Source: a virus (Duplodnaviria; Heunggongvirae; Uroviricota; Caudoviricetes). Taken from it: a stretch of 64,000 nt of DNA. The stretch is from IMG/VR virus record IMGVR_UViG_2703718819_000006; one strand, 5' to 3'. Positions 3,593 to 64,000 of the stretch are shown here, piece by piece. The notes beneath the pieces were generated by a model that had not been told where the DNA came from, made no database searches, and was given only the letters and a program-made list of their open reading frames with translations. Position 1 is the stretch's first letter. The number at the start of each line of letters is the position of its first letter. The position numbers were made by a program, and so were the translations under genes.

Positions 3593-5278
3593 TCATTTAA
3601 CGCGTTTGAAAACGTATACGCTGACTGTGATCCCTGTGTCTTCAAACTCGTTGGTAAACGACTTCCCTCTGGCATAAACGTAATTATCCATCGTCATCCA
3701 GTCCAGTATTGGCGCAGTGCCCGGCAATACTGCTACAAGACGCCCGCCGACTTTCAGATGCCCCAGCGCAGCCAGCGTGTGCTCTCTATGACGACCAAGC
3801 GAGTACGGCGGGTTCATAACGATTTTGTCGAACTGATAACCTACGTTGTCCTCAGACCACTTTATGAAGTCGCAGCAAATCGTGTTCGTATACCCTTTTC
3901 CGCGCAGGATATCAGCGAAGAGAGGTGCGATTTCTATGCAGGTAACATCTTCCAGATCGGCGTTGATATAGGCCAGAAGATCCCCACGTCCGGCTTGAGG
4001 CTCCAGCAGCTTCTCACCAGGCTTCAATTCAGTGGCTCTGGCAACGTACTCAGCAATCAAGCGTGGGGTAGGGTAGAACTGGTGTGATTTTGTATCCGGT
4101 ATTAATCCGGTAGCCACAATCGTATTTAGCGTATGGCCGATCTCATACGGGAACTGCCAGTGCTTTTTCTCCTGCACGCCGCCAATGAAGCTCAGTGTGC
4201 GCTCAAGCTCTTCCACCTGCGACTTCTGGAGAGCTGAATCAGAGAAGTACCATACGCCTTTGTCTTTGCTTAATCGCCCGTCACGAAGCGCAGTGCGAAC
4301 CGGCACGGAGATCGTCTTCTGGATTAACCCGAACTGCTTTGGTGCCCGTGTTTTTGGCGCGGTGCGACATGGCGCGGGGATTGCAGCAGGCATACTGTAA
4401 GCCAGCACCTCATTCAACTTCCAGGCCACGTCAGGATGTATTTCAAAGTGAACGTTGCCGTTCTTGAACATCTTCACGCGCATTAGATTTCCATCGACGT
4501 TCATCCAGTCACCGGTCTGGCAGTCGTTTGCCCGATACGCAGCTGATAGCACCTCAGCAGTGCGGTTGATGGTAATAAATTCTTTGTGCGCGAAGAAATG
4601 AAGCAAGACACGCAGATCGTCGATATAGTCCTCTTTGCGATAGTTCACACTAACGCTGTCCCGCCAGAAATCAGAAATGCAGTCAGCGATTATCAGACGT
4701 TCGCTGAAACCGTTTGTCTTATTTGTCTTGTGCGCAGGACTCAGCGCCTTAAACAAGCCATACACGCGCTCAGAGAGATATTTGTGCCTGTCATTCAGCA
4801 AATTAAGCATCGTGGGTATGACCGTTTCTGCTTTGAACTCCGGTACACCAACGAACTCTTTAACCTTCATCTGGTAGCCGGTTCTGTCAGTTTTGATGAC
4901 TTCCTGTTTGCCCTCTATAAACTGCTCGCGCCACTCATCTCGACGGGAAGCTGGCATGATCAGCAAAACGTTAGTCATGTCCGTGACCTTCCTCCAGTAC
5001 TCGGCCCAAATATTCTGTTTCACCCATTCCAGATCGACTTTATCCAACCAACCTCGATTTAAACGCGAGCGATCTTCATCTGGTCGATGGTTTAGTCTCA
5101 GCAGGCGATTAATCATGTTGTGGCGTTCGTCGCCATAAACGAAGTCGTGTACCTGATACATGAAGGCGATCTCTTTCTCGCACTCGGCCACAATTTCGTG
5201 GATGACGTTCATTTCCTGCCGATAGTCGATAGCAGTGTTTGAGTTGGCATCGTCGATGATGGAAAGGGCTGTATTCAT
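3593..5278 (-). CDS. putative N6-adenine DNA methyltransferase (gamma-class core at C-terminus) with ~390 aa N-terminal domain of unknown function
   Basis: C-terminal motifs FYPTP (motif X), LEPQAGRGDLL (motif I), NPPY (motif IV) in that order; N-terminal part without recognisable motifs. Confidence 0.6.
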   Translation of the reverse strand: MNTALSIIDDANSNTAIDYRQEMNVIHEIVAECEKEIAFMYQVHDFVYGDERHNMINRLLRLNHRPDEDRSRLNRGWLDKVDLEWVKQNIWAEYWRKVTDMTNVLLIMPASRRDEWREQFIEGKQEVIKTDRTGYQMKVKEFVGVPEFKAETVIPTMLNLLNDRHKYLSERVYGLFKALSPAHKTNKTNGFSERLIIADCISDFWRDSVSVNYRKEDYIDDLRVLLHFFAHKEFITINRTAEVLSAAYRANDCQTGDWMNVDGNLMRVKMFKNGNVHFEIHPDVAWKLNEVLAYSMPAAIPAPCRTAPKTRAPKQFGLIQKTISVPVRTALRDGRLSKDKGVWYFSDSALQKSQVEELERTLSFIGGVQEKKHWQFPYEIGHTLNTIVATGLIPDTKSHQFYPTPRLIAEYVARATELKPGEKLLEPQAGRGDLLAYINADLEDVTCIEIAPLFADILRGKGYTNTICCDFIKWSEDNVGYQFDKIVMNPPYSLGRHREHTLAALGHLKVGGRLVAVLPGTAPILDWMTMDNYVYARGKSFTNEFEDTGITVSVYVFKRVK

Positions 5279-5381
5279 AATTGCACCATTAAGAAGTGAT
5301 TTGTTTAATGGTGCAATTATTTCAAAAATGAAAAGGTACTAAATAGAAATAAACAGGCAATCCTTCAAATAAAGGCATTGG

Positions 5382-5996
5382 CTAATCATACTTGGAGGTA
5401 TTTATCACCAGAATTTTGTTTGTATAAATCTTCTTAATATCCCATGTGACATTACCGGAATACCATTGACCGTTATATACTTGGTTTCCAGTTGCACCTG
5501 TCATTGTTACATAGACAGGTCTGTCGTAATCGGTTCGTCTATAGTTATATACCCCAACCATAGCAGGCATTACCGCACATGGATACCCCATATCTATTGT
5601 AAATTGAGGGTCAGAAATAGTGATAAGTTTCGCATCAAGGGGCATCATCTCACCGTGATACACCATTGCGCCTGCGCTGTTATACATGGCAATGCCATAG
5701 CCAGAATGTGGTAACACCATATCAGAAAAAGCATAAACTGTTATTGTTCCGGGGCTACCATTTACCTGATGCAATCTGAGAGCATTGTATCCGTTACTAT
5801 GCTCATGAATAAACATCATGTTCGCCTTATTACTGCTTTTTATGAAGAAAAAGCATGATTTGTTTGATGGGATTGATGTTTGAAAAACAGAACCTTTAGA
5901 TGTAGACATTGTCCCTTTATTAATCAGATTTTGCGGAGTAAATTCTGGACTCATCCACAAACTTCCATCTGATTGAGTAATTGACATCCCGAACAT
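5382..5996 (-). CDS. hypothetical protein, G/Y/N/T-rich, in AT-rich island
   Basis: ORF track 5382..6053 begins on TTG; internal ATG at 5996; low GC relative to flanks. Confidence 0.4.
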   Translation of the reverse strand: MFGMSITQSDGSLWMSPEFTPQNLINKGTMSTSKGSVFQTSIPSNKSCFFFIKSSNKANMMFIHEHSNGYNALRLHQVNGSPGTITVYAFSDMVLPHSGYGIAMYNSAGAMVYHGEMMPLDAKLITISDPQFTIDMGYPCAVMPAMVGVYNYRRTDYDRPVYVTMTGATGNQVYNGQWYSGNVTWDIKKIYTNKILVINTSKYD

Positions 5997-5998
5997 AA

Positions 5999-6280
5999 TT
6001 ATCCCCAGTATGTGTATATGTAAGAACCAAGCCCCGTATATAAATTTGACCAACTAACCGTATTTCCATTAATAGTAACTGTTGGAACAGGTAAATTAAT
6101 GTAGTTGTCGTTGTTAAGAGGCATCAATGACCACACGGCATGTAGCGATTTACCCGGTGGCGGATTGGAGTACGTCTTAGAGCCTGATGACGCAGTAAAT
6201 CGATCAAGAAAAAAAATAGGAGTAAGGAAGCCAGTAACGTTAATTCCTTTATTGTTGTAAATCCCTGTACCGTATGCCAT
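5999..6280 (-). CDS. hypothetical protein, G/Y/N/T-rich, in AT-rich island
   Basis: ORF track; ATG with AAGGA RBS. Confidence 0.4.
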   Translation of the reverse strand: MAYGTGIYNNKGINVTGFLTPIFFLDRFTASSGSKTYSNPPPGKSLHAVWSLMPLNNDNYINLPVPTVTINGNTVSWSNLYTGLGSYIYTYWG

Positions 6281-6335
6281 TTTTCATCCTTGTTTTTTAT
6301 CAACACAATATGGCCGATCATGCGGCCATATCAGA

Positions 6336-6905
6336 TCAATTAGAGCTTTGAAAGGCTTTGTGTGGCTGTGTTGCGAGGTTATGTCGATGGCTTAACTCAC
6401 GCATCATGTCTTCAAGCCGACTCTTTGTGTCGTCGAGTTGGTCGGCCATTGCTCCCAAAAGCTGACGAACGGCCATCGGATCATCGCTGTTTAGTGATGG
6501 CATTTTATAACCCGCCTGAGAAGACATAAGATTGAACGCAGACATCAACATCGTTAGAGAGGATTTAAGCCCAGCAATTTCACGATCTTTGCTGGCAATA
6601 ATCGCCTCACTCTTGTTAGTGTCATCAGTTCGTTGAGTCTCGCTCACCATATCCAAAGTCGCCTGCAACTTATCAGCGCGCTCTTTTTCAGCAAGATAAT
6701 GAACACCGAAATGATGTGCTAAAGCTACAACCTGAGTTGGCTCTTCAAAGGTGGACTCAAAATTAAGTGCTGTAACCACTCTCTCAAATATGGAAACGTC
6801 TTCTATTCCTCGAAGAATGGCTAACATTTTGACCAGTTCATTAGCATCCATTTCTTCGAATAAGGCGTTTTGTTCATCAGCTATCGCTTTGCATTTCTTG
6901 CACAT
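6336..6905 (-). CDS. hypothetical protein
   Basis: ORF track; conserved leader motif upstream. Confidence 0.5.
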   Translation of the reverse strand: MCKKCKAIADEQNALFEEMDANELVKMLAILRGIEDVSIFERVVTALNFESTFEEPTQVVALAHHFGVHYLAEKERADKLQATLDMVSETQRTDDTNKSEAIIASKDREIAGLKSSLTMLMSAFNLMSSQAGYKMPSLNSDDPMAVRQLLGAMADQLDDTKSRLEDMMRELSHRHNLATQPHKAFQSSN

Positions 6906-7202
6906 GTGTTTTTCCTAATGCTTAAACAAGTTGTTTTCTTATTGGCTTTATTGTGATGTGGCATAAAAGGGGAGCAAGCTAAACGTAAAGGTGCAAACTC
7001 TCTATTTCGGTCAACGAAACACAAGGGCCATTTGGCCCTTGTCATTAACACGTTGCTTTACGGACTAGCGGATAAGCGAAGTAGATCGCCAGACCAATGA
7101 GGACGCCATCAGAAATGACAGACATCATCTTTCCCGTAAAATCCACCAACACCGCCATCACCAGAAGAGCAATGACGGTCACAAGCCGGAATCTCTCAAG
7201 CA

Positions 7203-7628
7203 TTAGAGATAAGCATCCAGTGACAACTGAAGCGCCTGTGCGATCTTTTTCAGGGCCAGCTCTTCTTGTTCGCCAATACCGTCTTGGTCGGCAATATCAA
7301 GGCACAGACACAGTACATCTACTGCATCATTAGTCCCGGCCACATCAGCCAGCTCACGTAAAGCCTGGGCATTAGCGCGGCGCGGTGAGGCTTCGTATTG
7401 AGCACGGATATTGGCACTCATTTGGGCAATCTCACCAGCAAACGGAGAAAACGCAGGCAGAGCTGCAATTGTTTTCTCAAGAATGGAAATTTCCTTTGCG
7501 TCGCATGTGCCATCGGCATAGGAGATCATGTACGCGCCCCACACGGTGGCTTCAACCGCATCTCGGTTCTCCATTTTTTTGACCTCGATAACAGCTTTAC
7601 GAGTTTTCTTTTTGAATAAACCTAACAT
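7203..7628 (-). CDS. TerB-like domain protein (tellurite-resistance TerB fold), putative
   Basis: Pattern ADGxxDxKEIxxLxxxI and acidic C-terminal helices typical of TerB-like proteins; assignment from memory. Confidence 0.45.
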   Translation of the reverse strand: MLGLFKKKTRKAVIEVKKMENRDAVEATVWGAYMISYADGTCDAKEISILEKTIAALPAFSPFAGEIAQMSANIRAQYEASPRRANAQALRELADVAGTNDAVDVLCLCLDIADQDGIGEQEELALKKIAQALQLSLDAYL

Positions 7629-7919: not shown

Positions 7920-8414
7920 TTAGTCACAGCATGATCCTGAGTAACTGGATGAACTTGAGGTATCGCATCCACCGTCATCCCATCCAGAGTGACAGGACGC
8001 TCTACTGGAGTGGTGGTAATTGTCGTCGACGGAGGTGTGGTGATGGATGAACCCGGCATCAAAAGGCTCTGGCCGGCTGGAACGGCTACCGTCGCCAGTG
8101 AAACTATAATGAGAACGTAGGCCATTGGTTTCAGCCTCTTTCTTTGAAAATTTTCCATTCGAACTGTCCTTGTTGTTTTTCTCCTTCACTAAAGGCCGTG
8201 TACTTTTCGCTTCGCGTGAAGAACCAGAGGTAACAATCGCCCCCACGTTCGCAACAACTGACGCTTGCTTATCTAAACGTTCATTCAGCAACCGAACGGC
8301 AGTCTCTAGTTCATCAAGACGTGACAGAACACGACCGCTAAATAATTCGGCCAAAATTTGACGTAGTGAACGAGGACGTTTAGTTGCAGAAGTGAAATAG
8401 GTTTGACGTGCCAT
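7920..8414 (-). CDS. hypothetical protein (N-terminal half coiled-coil-like; C-terminal half low complexity and overlapped by a signal-peptide ORF in another frame)
   Basis: ORF track 7920..8414 and overlapping 7907..8158. Confidence 0.35.
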   Translation of the reverse strand: MARQTYFTSATKRPRSLRQILAELFSGRVLSRLDELETAVRLLNERLDKQASVVANVGAIVTSGSSREAKSTRPLVKEKNNKDSSNGKFSKKEAETNGLRSHYSFTGDGSRSSRPEPFDAGFIHHHTSVDDNYHHSSRASCHSGWDDGGCDTSSSSSYSGSCCD

Positions 8415-10812: not shown

Positions 10813-10853
10813 ACGCGCCAGAAATGCAAACGAGAAGCTCTCTGGCGCGTTTT
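10813..10853 (-). terminator. rho-independent terminator candidate
   Basis: Inverted repeat cgcgccagag...ctctggcgcg followed by U-run on minus strand. Confidence 0.5.
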
Positions 10854-10928
10854 TGTGGTGCTGGGTATGTGATTGGCTTACCCAGCACTATAAAGCTCTC
10901 TATGGGCTTTATTTTCAGTAGGGGAACG

Positions 10929-11738
10929 TCATCCAATAGTGTACTCCGCGACAAACTTCTTAACGATCGGTGATTCTTCGTTCAATGTTAGATTTCCACC
11001 GTCTCTAACGGCAATTCCTGTCGCTGGAAATACAGCCATCATTTGCCCAGCCTGAGTTGACGCAGTGTTAAGCGGATACGGTTTTTCTGGATTGCTCATT
11101 AAAGCAATCTTAATACTATTACTTGTAGCCTTCTTTTCTGTGAGAAGGTGTCTCATGGAAATTACCGTGTAAACACTAATATCTGGACCTCCGCTAAACC
11201 AATTAAGAAGGTTTAATATCTTATCCTTTGCTTTGACAGGCGCGTTATCGTAAGCGTCTAAGAAAATATCTTTTTCTAAGCCCGCTTTATTGAAAAACGA
11301 ATCATCTTTATCACTTAAAGTAAAACGAGGACCTCTTGCAGTACGAGCTTTTTTATTTGTATTGCTATCATTTGACTGTTGAACTTTTAATTCATCATTA
11401 ACCTCAACACACTCTTCAACCTCAATAAATCCCAATTGTTCTGGCTCGTTTTCGGCAGCTTCAACACTTTCAGCGTTAATTACGTTTATAGGCTCATGCG
11501 CTAACTCCAACTCATTTAAAGCGGAGCTGAAATCACCTGCTTTTTCTTCATTGAACAGTTCTTCGGCAACATCATCAGGACTCATGGCTACGCCAGCATC
11601 GAGGCCGAGAAGCAGATCGTCAATATCATCAGTATTTTCAACCTGTGCAGCTTTTTTTACTGGTTCATCAAGTGATTGCAGCATGGCTGTCAGCTCATCC
11701 AGATCATCATTTGTCATTACATTTTCAACCGAACTCAT
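10929..11738 (-). CDS. hypothetical acidic protein
   Basis: ORF track; AAGGAGA RBS. Confidence 0.5.
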   Translation of the reverse strand: MSSVENVMTNDDLDELTAMLQSLDEPVKKAAQVENTDDIDDLLLGLDAGVAMSPDDVAEELFNEEKAGDFSSALNELELAHEPINVINAESVEAAENEPEQLGFIEVEECVEVNDELKVQQSNDSNTNKKARTARGPRFTLSDKDDSFFNKAGLEKDIFLDAYDNAPVKAKDKILNLLNWFSGGPDISVYTVISMRHLLTEKKATSNSIKIALMSNPEKPYPLNTASTQAGQMMAVFPATGIAVRDGGNLTLNEESPIVKKFVAEYTIG

Positions 11739-11896
11739 GTAAGTCTCCTTCTGTTTAGTTGCATTTGCGTTTCGATGGCTACATTTTGACTAAACCTATC
11801 AGGCGGAAAAGTATTAAATACAGGCAGTAAATGATTGAAAGGCGACTGTTCTTTAAAAGAAAGCCTACTTTAAACTTTTTAAAGTAGGCTTTTGTT

Positions 11897-12454
11897 TTAC
11901 ACAATTTCAGAGGGTAATTTAAAAAATCCGTACTTATTACGTGCCTTAAAGAAGCATTGCATCATTAAGTTTGTGTCATATAAGGCACTATGTGCTTTGG
12001 CATGATCGTATATAAAGCCAAGAGAGAAGGCCAACTCTTCAAGGCGGGGACGTTTACCGTCTTCTGTGGCCCAAAATCCCGATAACATAGTATCTATAAC
12101 AGGAACTTCTGGCAGTCTTACTCCATACCCTGAAAACTCGTGTCGAATAAATGGTATATCAAATGCTTCGCCGTTATGAGCAACCCACACACTACATGCC
12201 CCCATATAAGCGCCAATTTCGCTGGCATGATTTGACAACAAAGGTTCAGCTGCGAGCTGTTCCAATGAAATGCCATGAACGGCTTGAGCTTTCGGATCTA
12301 TGTTTCTGCGAGGGTTAAAACGCATCTCCAGACTATCAATATGTCTCTGTGTCTCCAGTTCATAGCGGGTAATTGCGATTTCAATAATTTTATGACCAGC
12401 AAGGAAATCCAGTCCCGTAGACTCGATATCGATGCCTGCAACAATCGTTGTCAT
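11897..12454 (-). CDS. DnaQ-like (DEDDh) 3'-5' exonuclease
   Basis: GIDIESTGL exo I motif, HNGEAFDIPF exo II, C-terminal H/D motif; AAGGAG RBS. Confidence 0.75.
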   Translation of the reverse strand: MTTIVAGIDIESTGLDFLAGHKIIEIAITRYELETQRHIDSLEMRFNPRRNIDPKAQAVHGISLEQLAAEPLLSNHASEIGAYMGACSVWVAHNGEAFDIPFIRHEFSGYGVRLPEVPVIDTMLSGFWATEDGKRPRLEELAFSLGFIYDHAKAHSALYDTNLMMQCFFKARNKYGFFKLPSEIV

Positions 12455-12463
12455 CAGAACTCC

Positions 12464-12883
12464 TTACAACTTCTTAGCGCCCTTAAGTAGTGCGCTACGT
12501 ACAAATTGAGCCGCTTTTTTCAAAGTTTCTTCACTGGTTTCACAGACAATCGGATCTTTCCACTTACCTGACACAGTGTTGAGAATATTGATTTGGTTGC
12601 TATCCAGACAAACAGAGATATAAAGCACCGTGCCACCAGCCAGCATCAAATGCATAGGAAACAGAGGCTTTTTACTGCCTTCACTGAACTGAGACATGGC
12701 GATGTTAATGGCTTCACCCACTTGTGTACCAACAAGCCCCTGCGCAGTTTCGAATATGGCACGAATAGCCAGACGAGCCTCTCGATCGCTCATAAGCGAC
12801 CGGGAATGTTCGTCCGCTACACGAATCAAAGCCTCTGTTGTTTTCCGATCCAGTTCATCTTCAAGCAACATTTCACTAAACAT
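12464..12883 (-). CDS. hypothetical protein
   Basis: ORF track. Confidence 0.5.
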   Translation of the reverse strand: MFSEMLLEDELDRKTTEALIRVADEHSRSLMSDREARLAIRAIFETAQGLVGTQVGEAINIAMSQFSEGSKKPLFPMHLMLAGGTVLYISVCLDSNQINILNTVSGKWKDPIVCETSEETLKKAAQFVRSALLKGAKKL

Positions 12884-12944
12884 TTTTTATCCTTAACCCA
12901 TTTTGAGAGTTTTATTGTCGCAATGTCGAAGAGGCGAACAATTT

Positions 12945-13589
12945 CTAATGAACGGTCACTCGGCCACAGAACCGGTTTTCTATCTTTTCTACAGCGTTAT
13001 CTAGCATTCTCATCACTGATCTGGCTCTTGCTTCAACTGTGCGATACCGGTTGGAAACGACGAAGGTTTGCAGATCTCCCCTTTGCGGATGCAGGTGAAT
13101 TTTTGTCAGTTCCCCGCACATCAACGCATCAATACGAGCGACATACAGACGGTCTAATGATGCTCGTTGTGACCGCAAGTAATCTCGCTCTGAGAGAGCG
13201 ACCACCGGGCGTAGGCCAGCAATGGCGTTAAAGTTTGAAATAGCAGTTTTGTGGCAAAACTTTTCGATATCGAGGGCTAACTCAATACATCGATCTTCAT
13301 TGGTATGGCCGACCAAATCCAACGTGTAGGCCATAACATCAGCAGGTGTGCGATCGATAACAAAGCCTTCAGCACCACGCGTAAGTAGCTCTATATGCTT
13401 TGCTATTTCCATTTGAATCTGAAGCCGCTCATATAGAGGCATAGAATCACCTACTCGAACACCGAGGCGGCTCATCAAACTTCCGACACCAGCATCCACG
13501 TAAGGGATTCCGTAATGTTTGTCGATATATTTAGCCAGGGTTGTTTTCCCACTGCCCTGAGCACCAGTGATCCCAATCCGGTAATCCAT
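12945..13589 (-). CDS. P-loop NTPase, putative nucleotide or nucleoside kinase
   Basis: Walker A GITGAQGSGKTT at N-terminus; position among nucleotide-metabolism genes. Confidence 0.5.
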   Translation of the reverse strand: MDYRIGITGAQGSGKTTLAKYIDKHYGIPYVDAGVGSLMSRLGVRVGDSMPLYERLQIQMEIAKHIELLTRGAEGFVIDRTPADVMAYTLDLVGHTNEDRCIELALDIEKFCHKTAISNFNAIAGLRPVVALSERDYLRSQRASLDRLYVARIDALMCGELTKIHLHPQRGDLQTFVVSNRYRTVEARARSVMRMLDNAVEKIENRFCGRVTVH

Positions 13590-29160: not shown

Positions 29161-29586
29161 TCAATCATCTTGTTTAGGGAAAAACTGTTCAATAACTCTG
29201 TCAACGGCTGTGTCTATATGGAGTAGATGCCACACAACCATATCTTTGCTCCCCATGCCTTGTGTGAATATCACGTCATACTTACGCCATGCGCAGTGGA
29301 ACCAATATGCTGAGTCATCAATTGGTAAATCCTCTCCCGCCTCTTTGAAGTATTTCAGCAGCATTGCTTGCTCTGCCGTTGGCGTTGGACCTATTTCCTG
29401 AGCGTACATACGGATAAATCGCTGCCAGTCTGTCTCGTCGGTGGTCGGATCTGGTGGATTCATTTCGGCGATAGCGTTTCGTAGCTGATGCGCCCAATCA
29501 GGTTCAGGAAAGCCTTTTGATACTTCATCATCAATAACATCCAGAGCCGCGTTTGCGGCATCGTAGAGTTTCTTAATTGCTGCCAT
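29161..29586 (-). CDS. hypothetical protein
   Basis: ORF track. Confidence 0.5.
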   Translation of the reverse strand: MAAIKKLYDAANAALDVIDDEVSKGFPEPDWAHQLRNAIAEMNPPDPTTDETDWQRFIRMYAQEIGPTPTAEQAMLLKYFKEAGEDLPIDDSAYWFHCAWRKYDVIFTQGMGSKDMVVWHLLHIDTAVDRVIEQFFPKQDD

Positions 29587-29647
29587 GTTTACTTCTCCTT
29601 ATAAATAGGAAAATAATCACCTTTGAAAAAATAAAGCAAAGATATAT

Positions 29648-30037
29648 TCACTCCGATACAAGACGTTTATATGCTTCGATGTCTCGACGTGCTTCACCGA
29701 GTTTTCTTCTTAGGTCCATATTTTCTGATTCAAGTTTTTCAATGTTTTTTTGGTATCGGCCACGATGTTCTTCCCAGGCATCCTGATATGCCTTCATATA
29801 TGTCGTATTAGCCTTTCTTTTTGCCTGACGAACCGCGTGGTGATTTTCTACAAACCAGTCAGGGTCGTTAAATGCTGCTCTTGCGCATTTATACCAATAA
29901 TCGGTTGACTCTCTGTTTAACCAATGAATGGTGATAAATGGTAATCGAATAGACAGAATTTTTCGTTTGGAATCTCGCTCACCAAACATATGCCCTTTTT
30001 TTATCTTTAAACCGAACCCAGGTTGAATTAAAAGCAT
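29648..30037 (-). CDS. hypothetical protein (AT-rich island)
   Basis: ORF track; GAGG RBS. Confidence 0.45.
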   Translation of the reverse strand: MLLIQPGFGLKIKKGHMFGERDSKRKILSIRLPFITIHWLNRESTDYWYKCARAAFNDPDWFVENHHAVRQAKRKANTTYMKAYQDAWEEHRGRYQKNIEKLESENMDLRRKLGEARRDIEAYKRLVSE

Positions 30038-30057
30038 TGTCAGTACCTCAGATGCAT

Positions 30058-30798
30058 TTATGGCAGTAATTCTTTACCGCTTTCCATTTTGGTGATAGAG
30101 ACAGTAGGATCATCGTTAATGCATGATTCTGTGCCTAATGCTGCTAACCCTTTACGCATAACCGTGCCCGCAACATACGCCTCAATCTCCGCCTTTCCAG
30201 ATGAGACAATTTCATCCATTTGTTCCTGCATTAATTCGGTAGCAAAGCACAGATTTTCAGGAAGGTTAGCTACAGCAGATGCTAGTTTTCTATATAGTTC
30301 TTCAAGGTCACGTTTTCCAGCTCTTCCTTTTTTCACAAGTTCACCTAGCTCTGAAACTTGCTGATTAAGTCGATCAATCTCACTATTCGTAGCGGCCTTT
30401 ATTTGATCGTTGAATTTTTGCCGAATACTTTTTTGCTCGGCAATATCATGAACTCTAATTGAGTCTCCAATGGTTTTATATGAAATAGTGCATGGCACAC
30501 CTTCGCCCACTCCAAAACTGCTAACCATAGCAGCCCATTGTGCCTGGCTAAGTCTAATTTCAACTAAAGGCCGTCTATTGCAACTTCTTTGTGGGCGGGT
30601 TCGTTCATTGTCTAAGGACAGTTCCGCCTCGTAAACGCCTATTTCAATATAGTCTCTATGTTCCAGTTCTGAATCAAATAGGCGAATGCCAGTTGTGCTA
30701 ACACGGCTTGTTTTCACAAGACCGAACGCTGGATGTGTTTGAATTTTTTCCCCATGTTTATTAAGGGTCGTTTTTGGTTCTTCAATTTTTCTTTTCAC
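30058..30798 (-). CDS. hypothetical protein (AT-rich island), GTG start
   Basis: ORF track. Confidence 0.45.
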   Translation of the reverse strand: MKRKIEEPKTTLNKHGEKIQTHPAFGLVKTSRVSTTGIRLFDSELEHRDYIEIGVYEAELSLDNERTRPQRSCNRRPLVEIRLSQAQWAAMVSSFGVGEGVPCTISYKTIGDSIRVHDIAEQKSIRQKFNDQIKAATNSEIDRLNQQVSELGELVKKGRAGKRDLEELYRKLASAVANLPENLCFATELMQEQMDEIVSSGKAEIEAYVAGTVMRKGLAALGTESCINDDPTVSITKMESGKELLP

Positions 30799-62646: not shown

Positions 62647-62970
62647 TTATTGCAGTCCATTTTTTACGCCATACGCGGCTAACCCCAAAAGCAGTGCAGT
62701 GATAATGAACGACGTTATTTTAGAAACAATGCCGCCAAAGAACCCACTGGAGATGGAATCTAACCGGTTAAGGAGTTTGTCCAGATTGGAGTGTTGAATA
62801 CTATGTTGCGCCGGGGTCATATCACCAAAGTAGGTTTTCAGCTGATCATTGACCTCCTGGCCAATTTCTTCACGTAGCTCTTTACCTAATTTGCCAACAA
62901 CCTCCCGAGCAACGATCGCGGCGATACGCTCAACTTGCTCTGTTGTAACGCCCGCCATCTCGTTCGACAT
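62647..62970 (-). CDS. holin-like small membrane protein
   Basis: C-terminal TM helix; GGAGGA RBS at internal ATG; first gene of lysis cassette. Confidence 0.4.
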   Translation of the reverse strand: MSNEMAGVTTEQVERIAAIVAREVVGKLGKELREEIGQEVNDQLKTYFGDMTPAQHSIQHSNLDKLLNRLDSISSGFFGGIVSKITSFIITALLLGLAAYGVKNGLQ

Positions 62971-63107
62971 GTTTCCTCCATGAAAAGTCAAATCGGGATG
63001 GCGGATTTATATCACATTTTACCCCTCAATTGATAGGTATGTACCTGCCTATTTATATTGCAAAACTAATGAGGGCTTGGTTCTAAACTAATCCTCGTTG
63101 AAGTTAT

Positions 63108-64000
63108 TTATTCTTCACGTGAATTTAACTTCGTTTCAAGCTCCTCAACCCTTTTGGTCAATTGCTGAATATGATGAATGAGTGGTACAACCAAACGCTC
63201 ATACATCACTCCTTCAGCGACCATACCATTTGAGGAAATATCTTCTGGAGAATCATTATTTGTTGGTTCACGCCAATGGACATATTGCGGGGCAATCTCA
63301 CCAACCTCTTCAGCAATAAGGCCGTAATACCCCCAATCCTTTCGGTCACCTCGACAAATTGAACGATACCAAACAGGTCTTAATGACAAAAGTTCATCAG
63401 CATATCGATCTTGTAATGTTTCAATATCCTTTTTATAGCGCCTTGAAGAGGTTGAACGCCAAACTGTATTGATACCTGGGTTTGGATCAATGTACATATT
63501 GGCACCGCTAGTAGTTGTGCCAATATCCCATATAGCAAACCCTCCACTACCGCCTGATTTGACAACCAGTGTTTCAGCAATAATATCCAGGTTGCCACTA
63601 TAGCCTGTCAGTGATGATCTGCTTGCATAGGAACTTAGAAGGTTTGTTACCTCTGTTTTCGTGTAAGCATTAAGGTTAGTCGCAGTCAAAGTTATATCGG
63701 CAGAGCCATCAAACGCCACACCAGCAATTTTCCTTGCTGTCTGCAATTTTGTGGCGGTTGCGGCATTACCAGTAGTGTTCTGATTACCAGTTGTATTCAC
63801 ACCAGGGATTGAATCCTTAGCGGTATATACCTGCGCCCACTCTGACCATGCCGCACCTGTGTAATCTCTTCGGGAGCGAATGAAAACCGGCGCATGTGCA
63901 CCGCTCGTACCACTCCAGCCAATAAGCAACTCGCCCTCACCAGCAGCACTCGCACCTTTCATGTGCAATACGTTGCCATACGTGGTCGGGTAGCTATTGT
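63108..64000 (-). CDS. tail fibre protein, C-terminal part with intramolecular-chaperone (S74-like) domain; 5' end beyond window
   Basis: Gly/Thr/Ser-rich beta region followed by SSRRYKKDIETL..LRPVWYR..GLIAEEV chaperone-like C-terminus. Confidence 0.55.
   Translation of the reverse strand, partial: NSYPTTYGNVLHMKGASAAGEGELLIGWSGTSGAHAPVFIRSRRDYTGAAWSEWAQVYTAKDSIPGVNTTGNQNTTGNAATATKLQTARKIAGVAFDGSADITLTATNLNAYTKTEVTNLLSSYASRSSLTGYSGNLDIIAETLVVKSGGSGGFAIWDIGTTTSGANMYIDPNPGINTVWRSTSSRRYKKDIETLQDRYADELLSLRPVWYRSICRGDRKDWGYYGLIAEEVGEIAPQYVHWREPTNNDSPEDISSNGMVAEGVMYERLVVPLIHHIQQLTKRVEELETKLNSREE

Follow-up and report, generated by a model that had tools for sequence, protein, structure and literature searches.

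SSU5-type phage-plasmids are common in Escherichia coli, Klebsiella, Salmonella and Yersinia, and the determinants of the cells that they infect are poorly known. A 64,000-nucleotide stretch of DNA from the tailed phage record IMGVR_UViG_2703718819_000006 (here called the window) carries a region that is 100% identical to many non-mobilisable E. coli plasmids of ~110 kb, and that shares 98.7% identity with Cyrano, an Escherichia phage related to Salmonella phage SSU5; hence, the window is part of an SSU5-type phage-plasmid. Within it, two small open reading frames (ORFs), orfA and orfB, lie head to tail in an AT-rich block, and the original prediction, made from the sequence alone, proposed that they may be halves of one ancestral gene split by a frameshift. 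The question raised by this locus is whether orfA and orfB are the remains of a broken gene or a working pair and, in the latter case, what the pair does. Our analyses favour the reading that orfA and orfB together form a horizontally acquired, two-subunit tail-tip receptor-binding module residing at a displaced locus, which we regard as probable.

The coordinates, strand and 2-nt spacer first reported for the two ORFs are correct (Table 1), and the ORFs meet at the junction TGG GGA TAA tt ATG. The surrounding block is as strongly AT-rich as had been claimed: positions 5290-6330 have a GC content of 0.379, the minimum among all 1041-nt intervals of the 64 kb (mean 0.457, standard deviation 0.026), placing the orfA/orfB block ~3 standard deviations below the mean. 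The unusual richness in Gly, Tyr, Asn, Thr and Ser also holds, these residues constituting a fraction of 0.516 in orfA and 0.402 in orfB, which rank first and second among 68 proxy genes of the window (mean 0.259, standard deviation 0.056). Asp, Glu, Lys and Arg account for 6.5% of orfA, the window minimum, and 12.7% of orfB, against a window mean of 25.3%. The N-terminus of orfA is MAYGTGIYNNKG and that of orfB is MFGMSITQSDGS; orfA is without any Cys.

Judged from their sequences, orfA and orfB are genuine, intact and functional genes, because their homologues number in the hundreds and the ratio of non-synonymous to synonymous substitution rates (dN/dS) is 0.06-0.12 for both against PhiR41_1, JenP1 and Stx2 II (0.075 for orfA), a range that indicates strong purifying selection on each. 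Using tblastn, homologues of orfA, all covering at least 80% of the query, were identified in 278 phage records and homologues of orfB in 384, and more than 100 plasmids hold intact identical or near-identical copies of the pair. The two-ORF layout is seen in Stx podophages (Stx2 II C21/C22), Drexlerviridae (tonijn, KarlJaspers, FritzSarasin), Nonagvirus (JenP1, JenP2) and the lambdoid siphovirus SaltyDalty, while SSU5 and pECOH89 hold a distant form of it with similar sizes and order. Across these lineages protein identity ranges from 26 to 83% for orfB and from 30 to 76% for orfA.

The function of the pair is suggested by the location of these homologues, which adjoin J-like or tail-fibre genes in JenP1, tonijn, SaltyDalty, KarlJaspers, FritzSarasin, Stx2 II, SSU5 and pECOH89. 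In Drexlerviridae, Dhillonvirus and Queuovirinae (Nonagvirus, Seuratvirus), a hypervariable locus downstream of gpJ is reported to set the terminal receptor; the largest gene of this locus encodes the candidate receptor-binding protein (RBP), and accessory genes and a superinfection-exclusion lipoprotein are also found there (PMC8594841; 10.64898/2026.04.02.716166). KarlJaspers (Bas06) and FritzSarasin (Bas04) target BtuB according to the S5 table of PMC8594841, and btuB was recovered by a genome-wide screen for Bas06 (supplement, 10.64898/2026.04.02.716166). In Bas04 and Bas06 the locus after J comprises exactly three genes, encoding a lipoprotein (MKKLIAV..LTGC), an orfA homologue and an orfB homologue. 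OrfB is 42% identical to bas06_0024 over 204/204 aa and 39% identical to bas04_0023, and orfA is 49-55% identical to the middle, accessory genes of the two loci. By elimination, we infer that bas06_0024 is the Bas06 RBP of the preprint, whose own identifier is not mappable to a sequence. As a member of this family, the pair has BtuB as the leading guess for its receptor.

Structure prediction, which had been suggested as a check, produced a confident all-beta AlphaFold2 model for orfB from a 24-sequence alignment (predicted local distance difference test (pLDDT) 92.5; predicted template modelling score (pTM) 0.87), and the only strong structural match to this model is a phage RBP. Structural alignment with the RBP of phage Oekolampad gives 11% identity with a shared fold, so that the relation predicted by the model is one at the level of fold. 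A model of the fused homologue P0092 (see below; pLDDT 77.5) returned the same top Foldseek match as orfB (probability 0.99, TM 0.40/0.48), the second match having a probability of 0.02. With 309 aa in one chain, the Oekolampad protein inserts into LptD from the extracellular side; in the map, the part nearest the tail is disordered (10.1101/2025.07.07.663478). Hence, of the original description of the two proteins as typical of 'beta-rich binding or toxin-like' proteins, the first part is borne out, whereas the toxin-like part has found no support. Within orfB, residues 1-30, 96-125 and 196-204 are conserved and residues 126-195 are the most variable, a pattern that would fit a conserved docking part combined with a variable receptor-contacting part.

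The pair occupies an unusual place in the genome. In SSU5, a DUF4942-domain methyltransferase gene (SSU5_095, 'DNA methyltransferase') and SSU5_094 lie ~140 nt apart, including a terminator hairpin, and the cassette in the window replaces ~100 nt of this intergenic DNA. Given the homology boundaries with SSU5 on the one hand and with the Nonagvirus JenP1 on the other (Table 1), orfA and orfB therefore constitute a discrete imported cassette. Its neighbours in the window are the DUF4942-domain methyltransferase gene, the SSU5_094 homologue, and Ea22/Eaa-like and TciA/B-like genes. A search for a consensus promoter or terminator of the cassette's own found none, and it probably rides a minus-strand operon. 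A hairpin, ATGGCCG-ATCAT-GCGGCCAT, is present at 6310-6329, just past the stop of a 189-aa ORF (6336-6905), at the position of a canonical GC-rich terminator with a T-run in SSU5; the hairpin in the window lacks the T-run and therefore transcription probably reads through into orfA/orfB.

Relatives of the pair also exist in the tail locus of other SSU5-type elements, and the two forms exclude one another almost completely. SSU5 and pECOH89 hold a distant pair between tail-fibre and lysis genes (84 aa and 202 aa in pECOH89); their smaller proteins match the orfA profile at E 1e-8 to 1e-10, and their larger proteins match the orfB profile at E ~1e-30. J lies outside the window, and comparisons of J were made with the near-identical phage Cyrano, in which J is at 17.7-22.4 kb and the pair is at 81.9-82.8 kb. 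The order in Cyrano is J, tail fibre, holin, with no pair between, and in the window likewise there is no orfA/orfB-type pair between the tail fibre and the holin-like gene; a tblastn search of the rest of the window for paralogues of orfA, orfB, SSU5_023 and SSU5_024 found none. Cyrano and pECOH89 are 99.5% identical over the final 400 aa of J. Among 254 matching plasmid records, 122 have the orfB type and 132 the SSU5 type, in 265 places in total, so both occur very rarely together. This J tip occurs in 811 plasmid records, and one pair type or the other is present in 183 of the 202 Escherichia plasmids that have it. Most simply, a single J tip would accept alternative modules, and the lineage of the window would have lost the tail-locus copy and would use an imported one elsewhere; a comparable displacement of gp38 is described in Krishvirus (10.64898/2026.04.02.716166).

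Beyond this lineage, J is related among pair-bearing phages at lower identity. The terminal ~190 aa of J from Cyrano are 37.5% identical to those of JenP1, and the J proteins of Cyrano and of KarlJaspers and tonijn are ~29-30% identical over longer alignments. Over the last ~190 aa, JenP1 is 37-44% identical to each of Cyrano, SSU5, KarlJaspers and tonijn, and other pairs of phages, including those with SaltyDalty, are ~30-42% identical.

Two observations concern the tail locus itself. The annotated start of SSU5_024 (7043) seems too far downstream; the ATG in the TAATG overlap with the SSU5_023 stop gives an ORF at 7001-7609, with the N-terminus MYGSKIVRSDGKVWMSP, which fits the conserved start of the family and is how pECOH89 is annotated. 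The 3' end of the tail-fibre gene (63056-64000) diverges sharply from Cyrano, with a 184-nt match left, while the adjoining lysis and partition region is 97% identical; hence, this lineage has swapped a second host-range module, the fibre tip.

In the mechanism that we propose, orfA and orfB would be mounted non-covalently on the tip of a T1-type J protein, as in small siphoviruses. The main beta-sandwich body would be orfB; a tail-proximal part that docks on J would be formed by orfA with the conserved N-terminal and central segments of orfB, whose variable segment (residues ~126-195) would contact a host outer-membrane protein. With its nearest relatives in the Nonagvirus phages JenP1 and JenP2, the cassette would have reached a non-structural operon of an SSU5-like E. 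coli phage-plasmid by horizontal transfer, and there the imported pair may stand in for the distant pair found beside the tail-fibre genes of SSU5 and pECOH89.

Several points weigh against a receptor-binding role. The cassette is outside the tail module, among accessory-type genes. Homologues of the lipoproteins of Bas04, Bas06, tonijn and SaltyDalty, or of Cor, were found nowhere in the window; JenP1 and Stx phages are also without an adjacent lipoprotein gene, such that this partner is not universal. In the Stx2 podophage Sp5, where ORF72 (92 aa) and ORF73 (205 aa) are the homologues, an in-frame deletion of each has been made, the published deletion primers containing the orfA/orfB-type junction sequence, and neither gene is among the nine genes needed for plaques or lysogenisation of K-12; ORF71, which is just upstream and has a gpJ-like DUF1983 domain, is essential (PMC5155283). 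Hence, there is at least one phage, a podovirus infecting a laboratory host, that can do without the pair. We found no published experiment that places any orfA/orfB homologue in the virion or on a receptor, and gp23 of Pantoea phage Vid5, a fused homologue, is not reported in the virion mass spectrometry of that phage, an absence that says nothing about a tip protein of low copy number. Searches of the PDB by sequence, comparing single proteins and profiles with all chains, found no relative and no match to 9rpt, so similarity to the solved RBP was not found at the sequence level. The link to BtuB consists of a correlation between locus and phenotype, together with AlphaFold3 models by others (10.64898/2026.04.02.716166), and orfB is ~40% identical to the Bas04 and Bas06 proteins and most different from them in the variable segment, so that the receptor is not confidently transferable. 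For JenP1 and JenP2, which hold the cassette's closest relatives, no receptor was found in the texts or supplements examined, and we found no paper on the receptors of E. coli SSU5-like phage-plasmids. Finally, the either/or pattern may have come from one or two ancestral events rather than from repeated replacement.

Some of these observations would suit a different role, in which the pair is moron or lysogenic-conversion cargo, absent from the virion, whose action is inside the host cell, such as superinfection exclusion or another benefit to the host. A position in an accessory operon outside the tail module, within the lowest GC of the window, agrees with this, as do the dispensability of Sp5 ORF72 and ORF73 for infection of K-12, the location of the Stx phage pair just upstream of lom, and the PHROGs class of the orfB family ('moron, auxiliary metabolic gene and host takeover'). 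However, no signal peptide, lipobox or transmembrane segment is present in orfA or orfB (maximum 19-aa Kyte-Doolittle scores of 0.94 and 1.10 respectively), which leaves the pair without the envelope route that known exclusion proteins have, and a separate lipoprotein gene fills the exclusion role in the Drexlerviridae and SSU5 loci. The match of the fold to a virion RBP, and the either/or distribution with a tail-locus pair on an identical J tip, also argue against cargo, and we consider this role unlikely.

Existing annotation offers little guidance here. OrfA matches phrog_557 (E 4.7e-29), which is labelled 'outer membrane protein', and phrog_425 is labelled 'membrane associated protein'; both names are unsupported by the sequences, look wrong and should not be propagated. 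Identity as a Lom/Ail outer-membrane protein, the group from which these two labels derive, was rejected since neither ORF has a signal peptide or matches an outer-membrane beta-barrel family, and Stx phages have a true lom as a separate neighbour. Identity as a Cor/Llp-type superinfection-exclusion lipoprotein was rejected since an N-terminal signal peptide with a lipobox is absent from both. In Pfam, orfA has no match and orfB has only a sub-threshold, partial match to DUF6453 (PF20051; 15.4 bits, E 0.012, against a gathering threshold of 25 bits), which disappears for concatenated orfA and orfB and for fused homologues; membership was rejected.

The proposal of a split gene can be examined at the junction. 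The arrangement of TGG-GGN-stop, a short spacer and ATG is kept in JenP1, Stx2 II, tonijn, SaltyDalty, KarlJaspers and PhiR41_1, and the Trp-Gly codons of the orfA homologues give the orfB Shine-Dalgarno sequence GGGG(A/G). The spacer is 1, 2 or 5 nt by lineage (1 nt in KarlJaspers), or is replaced by a TAATG overlap, and therefore the relative frame of orfA and orfB homologues is not constant. On these features, orfA and orfB are a translationally coupled, conserved pair and not a broken gene.

A further possibility is that programmed -1 ribosomal frameshifting at the heptamer A_AAT_TTA adds an orfA-orfB fusion product to the two separate ones. The heptamer has the canonical X_XXY_YYZ form in the correct phase, 40 nt before the orfA stop, and the -1 frame is open into orfB. 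It is found in the window and Cyrano only, being absent at the equivalent position in JenP1, Stx2 II, tonijn, SaltyDalty and KarlJaspers; the 1-nt spacer of KarlJaspers changes the relative frame of orfB; orfB possesses an ATG and a Shine-Dalgarno sequence of its own; and in such AT-rich DNA a chance heptamer could well occur. We judge it to be a chance feature and a functional frameshift very improbable, and a programmed frameshift pair of the tail-chaperone G/GT kind was rejected since neither heptamer nor relative frame is conserved among homologues.

The least probable case, that one gene of ~300 aa was recently broken by a frameshift and the ORFs are its decaying halves, draws on the existence of fused homologues of ~315 aa, whose N-terminus aligns to orfA and remainder to orfB, and on an E. 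coli chromosomal protein, P0012, that reads through a junction of this kind, but it is scarcely credible in the face of a two-ORF state with a Shine-Dalgarno sequence and ATG for orfB across at least five phage lineages, the low dN/dS of both ORFs and the intact copies on plasmids. The original prediction is contradicted, then, with respect to a recent split, for which comparison with homologues had been proposed as the check, and upheld with respect to an ancient fission or fusion. In P0012 (182 aa, 'outer membrane protein'), an orfA-like part runs directly into an orfB-like part (..GSYILYILGVSCMYGLSITKPDG..) and both ends are cut short, which gives the appearance of a prophage copy in decay, its junction fused by mutation.

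An exhaustive HMMER scan of 1.84 billion representative proteins returned only 112 relatives of orfB, nine of which are 309-325 aa long. In the fused homologues, the orfA profile aligns with the first ~90 aa (hhalign probability 89.6%, E 1.9e-6) and the orfB profile with residues from ~95 to ~250-280 (probability 99.6%, E 3.9e-24). Vid5 gp23 (326 aa) is of the fused form and is encoded directly after the J-like gp22. From these alignments, orfA and orfB are the counterparts of segments of a single protein in other phages, through an old fission or an old fusion, and the homology that they indicate between two-gene and single-chain forms is a modestly new point.

A similar plan extends to a further receptor type. 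The FhuA-type locus of JakobBernoulli (Bas07; 11510-12488) encodes a 101-aa protein, a 223-aa protein and a Cor-like lipoprotein, the second of which aligns along its whole length with the orfB profile (E 4.8e-15). FhuA-type (Bas07) and BtuB-type (Bas04, 11882-13046) loci have in common a small and a large gene, with homologous large proteins, although the literature calls the receptor families unrelated; that sequence similarity links the FhuA-type with the BtuB-type proteins, and fold similarity links both to the LptD-type RBP, is also modestly new. Tentatively, we suggest that the 'unrelated' families of RBPs beside gpJ in small siphoviruses may form one ancient superfamily, with a single-chain form (Rtp44/Oekolampad, Vid5 gp23) and a split form (orfA and orfB) that spread into Stx podophages and SSU5-type phage-plasmids, and which here has moved tens of kb from the tail genes as a foreign allele on an unchanged J tip. 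The evidence for this covers the FhuA, BtuB and LptD types, the YncD type being outside it. A weak recurring motif, [YFW]G-x2-[IV]-x4-G...P, at orfA 3-21, orfB 2-21 and orfB 100-120 hints that orfA and orfB supply three related beta-domains, which could cap the trimeric J tip with pseudo-threefold symmetry. Comparison of orfA with the halves of orfB as paralogous repeats gave a local hhalign E of 0.0079 at 5% probability and nothing in global mode, and a hidden Markov model of orfA touched residues 2-28 and 98-140 of the larger SSU5-type protein at E ~0.4 only.

Table 1. Positions of the paired genes, their translation signals, the cassette boundaries and the tail-end genes in the window.
Feature	Position	Strand	Description
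orfA	5999-6280	minus	93 aa, ATG start; putative small subunit/accessory protein of the pair; PHROG 557
orfB	5382-5996	minus	204 aa, ATG start; putative large subunit, candidate receptor-binding protein; PHROG 425
Shine-Dalgarno GGGGA of orfB	6002-6006	minus	made by the orfA C-terminal Trp-Gly codons, then TAA-TT-ATG; read from sequence
Shine-Dalgarno AAGGA of orfA	6287-6291	minus	6 nt 5' of the orfA ATG; read from sequence
A_AAT_TTA heptamer	6041-6047	minus	orfA frame, 40 nt 5' of the orfA stop; -1 frame open from 6053 through orfB
Cassette without counterpart in SSU5	5337-6356		local blastn: SSU5 homology stops at 5336 and resumes at 6357
Cassette core in common with Nonagvirus JenP1	5382-6286		76% nt identity; both ORFs and 6 nt upstream of the orfA start codon
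Lateral tail-fibre gene, C-terminal end	63108-63968	minus	C-terminus of phrog_3299, E 1.3e-190
Gene directly after the tail-fibre end	62647-62991		aligns with the Cyrano-annotated holin, 97% nt

Other features of the region were noted. A perfect 16-bp inverted repeat, ATAATTGCACCATTAA-N12-TTAATGGTGCAATTAT, at 5277-5320 overlaps with the minus-strand start codon, 5276-5278, of the DUF4942-domain methyltransferase gene (561 aa); SSU5 keeps the gene-proximal arm only, and the repeat might serve that gene as an operator or as a translational hairpin. Just upstream of the cassette operon is a 164-aa Ser/Thr-rich ORF (7920-8414), with the third highest Gly/Tyr/Asn/Thr/Ser fraction in the window (0.378) and a match to phrog_10411, a family of unknown function. 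The ORFs at 7203-7628 and 7045-7203 are annotated in Cyrano as homologues of P1 TciA and TciB. Further low-GC stretches, at 10850-11650 and ~29450-30600 (1041-nt intervals of <=0.40 GC), might mark other imported cassettes.

Should the pair be the terminal receptor-binding module, host range in these phage-plasmids could be read from two small genes that are now called 'outer membrane protein' or 'hypothetical', and RBP genes need not sit in the tail cluster, which matters for methods that search near tail genes only. That such a module can live far from the tail genes is itself a modestly new point. The occurrence of split and fused forms offers a simple system for studying the assembly of tail-tip adhesins, and phage retargeting has a natural template in one J tip that bears two very different modules; were the superfamily reading to prove right, the swap to a foreign allele on an unchanged J tip would be a natural example of modular retargeting.

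Among known systems, the BtuB-type locus of Drexlerviridae (bas04_0023/0024, bas06_0024/0025) matches the pair in genes, gene order, protein sizes (91-93 aa and 204 aa) and coupled junction, and its J has a C-terminal tip domain homologous to that of J from the window's element. In Bas04 and Bas06, which are virulent small siphoviruses, the pair is beside J; in the window, which belongs to a temperate phage-plasmid, it is in a non-structural operon ~57 kb (~59 kb in Cyrano) from the tail genes, and the variable segment of orfB is unlike the Bas04 and Bas06 proteins, such that the receptor may differ. The Stx pair, Sp5 ORF72/ORF73 (ECs1234/ECs1235), equivalent to Stx2 II C21/C22, is 61-65% identical and retains the order and coupled junction; it follows the gene with the gpJ-like DUF1983 domain and has lom next downstream, but it belongs to a short-tailed podovirus, unlike the element here, and is non-essential on K-12.

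The single-chain systems are more distant. The fused homologues (Vid5 gp23 and the ~315-aa metagenomic P0092, P0142 and others) resemble orfA and then orfB along their length, but are one polypeptide with a C-terminal YDxYY...LG tail where the window has two genes, with only ~23% identity to orfB in the profile alignment (27% by tblastn for P0092 against the Cyrano pair). The Rtp44/Oekolampad (Bas18) RBP, solved with LptDE (PDB 9rpt chain C; 10.1101/2025.07.07.663478), also has its niche downstream of gpJ, like relatives of the pair, and at 309 aa is close to the 297 aa of orfA and orfB combined; it differs in being one polypeptide rather than a module split into 93 aa and 204 aa, and in binding LptD, where the sequence relatives of orfB belong to BtuB-dependent phages.

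A further comparison is with SSU5_023/SSU5_024 and the pECOH89 pair, which are homologous to orfA/orfB in unchanged order, with a TAATG stop/start overlap in SSU5 that is implied by the annotated coordinates in pECOH89. The J tip of pECOH89 is that of the window's lineage (99.5%), whereas the SSU5-type pair is only 26-29% identical to orfB and sits at the junction of tail-fibre and lysis genes, with a Cor-like lipoprotein gene next in SSU5, rather than beside the DUF4942-domain methyltransferase gene. By these comparisons, orfA and orfB appear to belong to the recognised J-tip receptor-binding modules of small siphoviruses, carried here at a non-canonical locus in a phage-plasmid.

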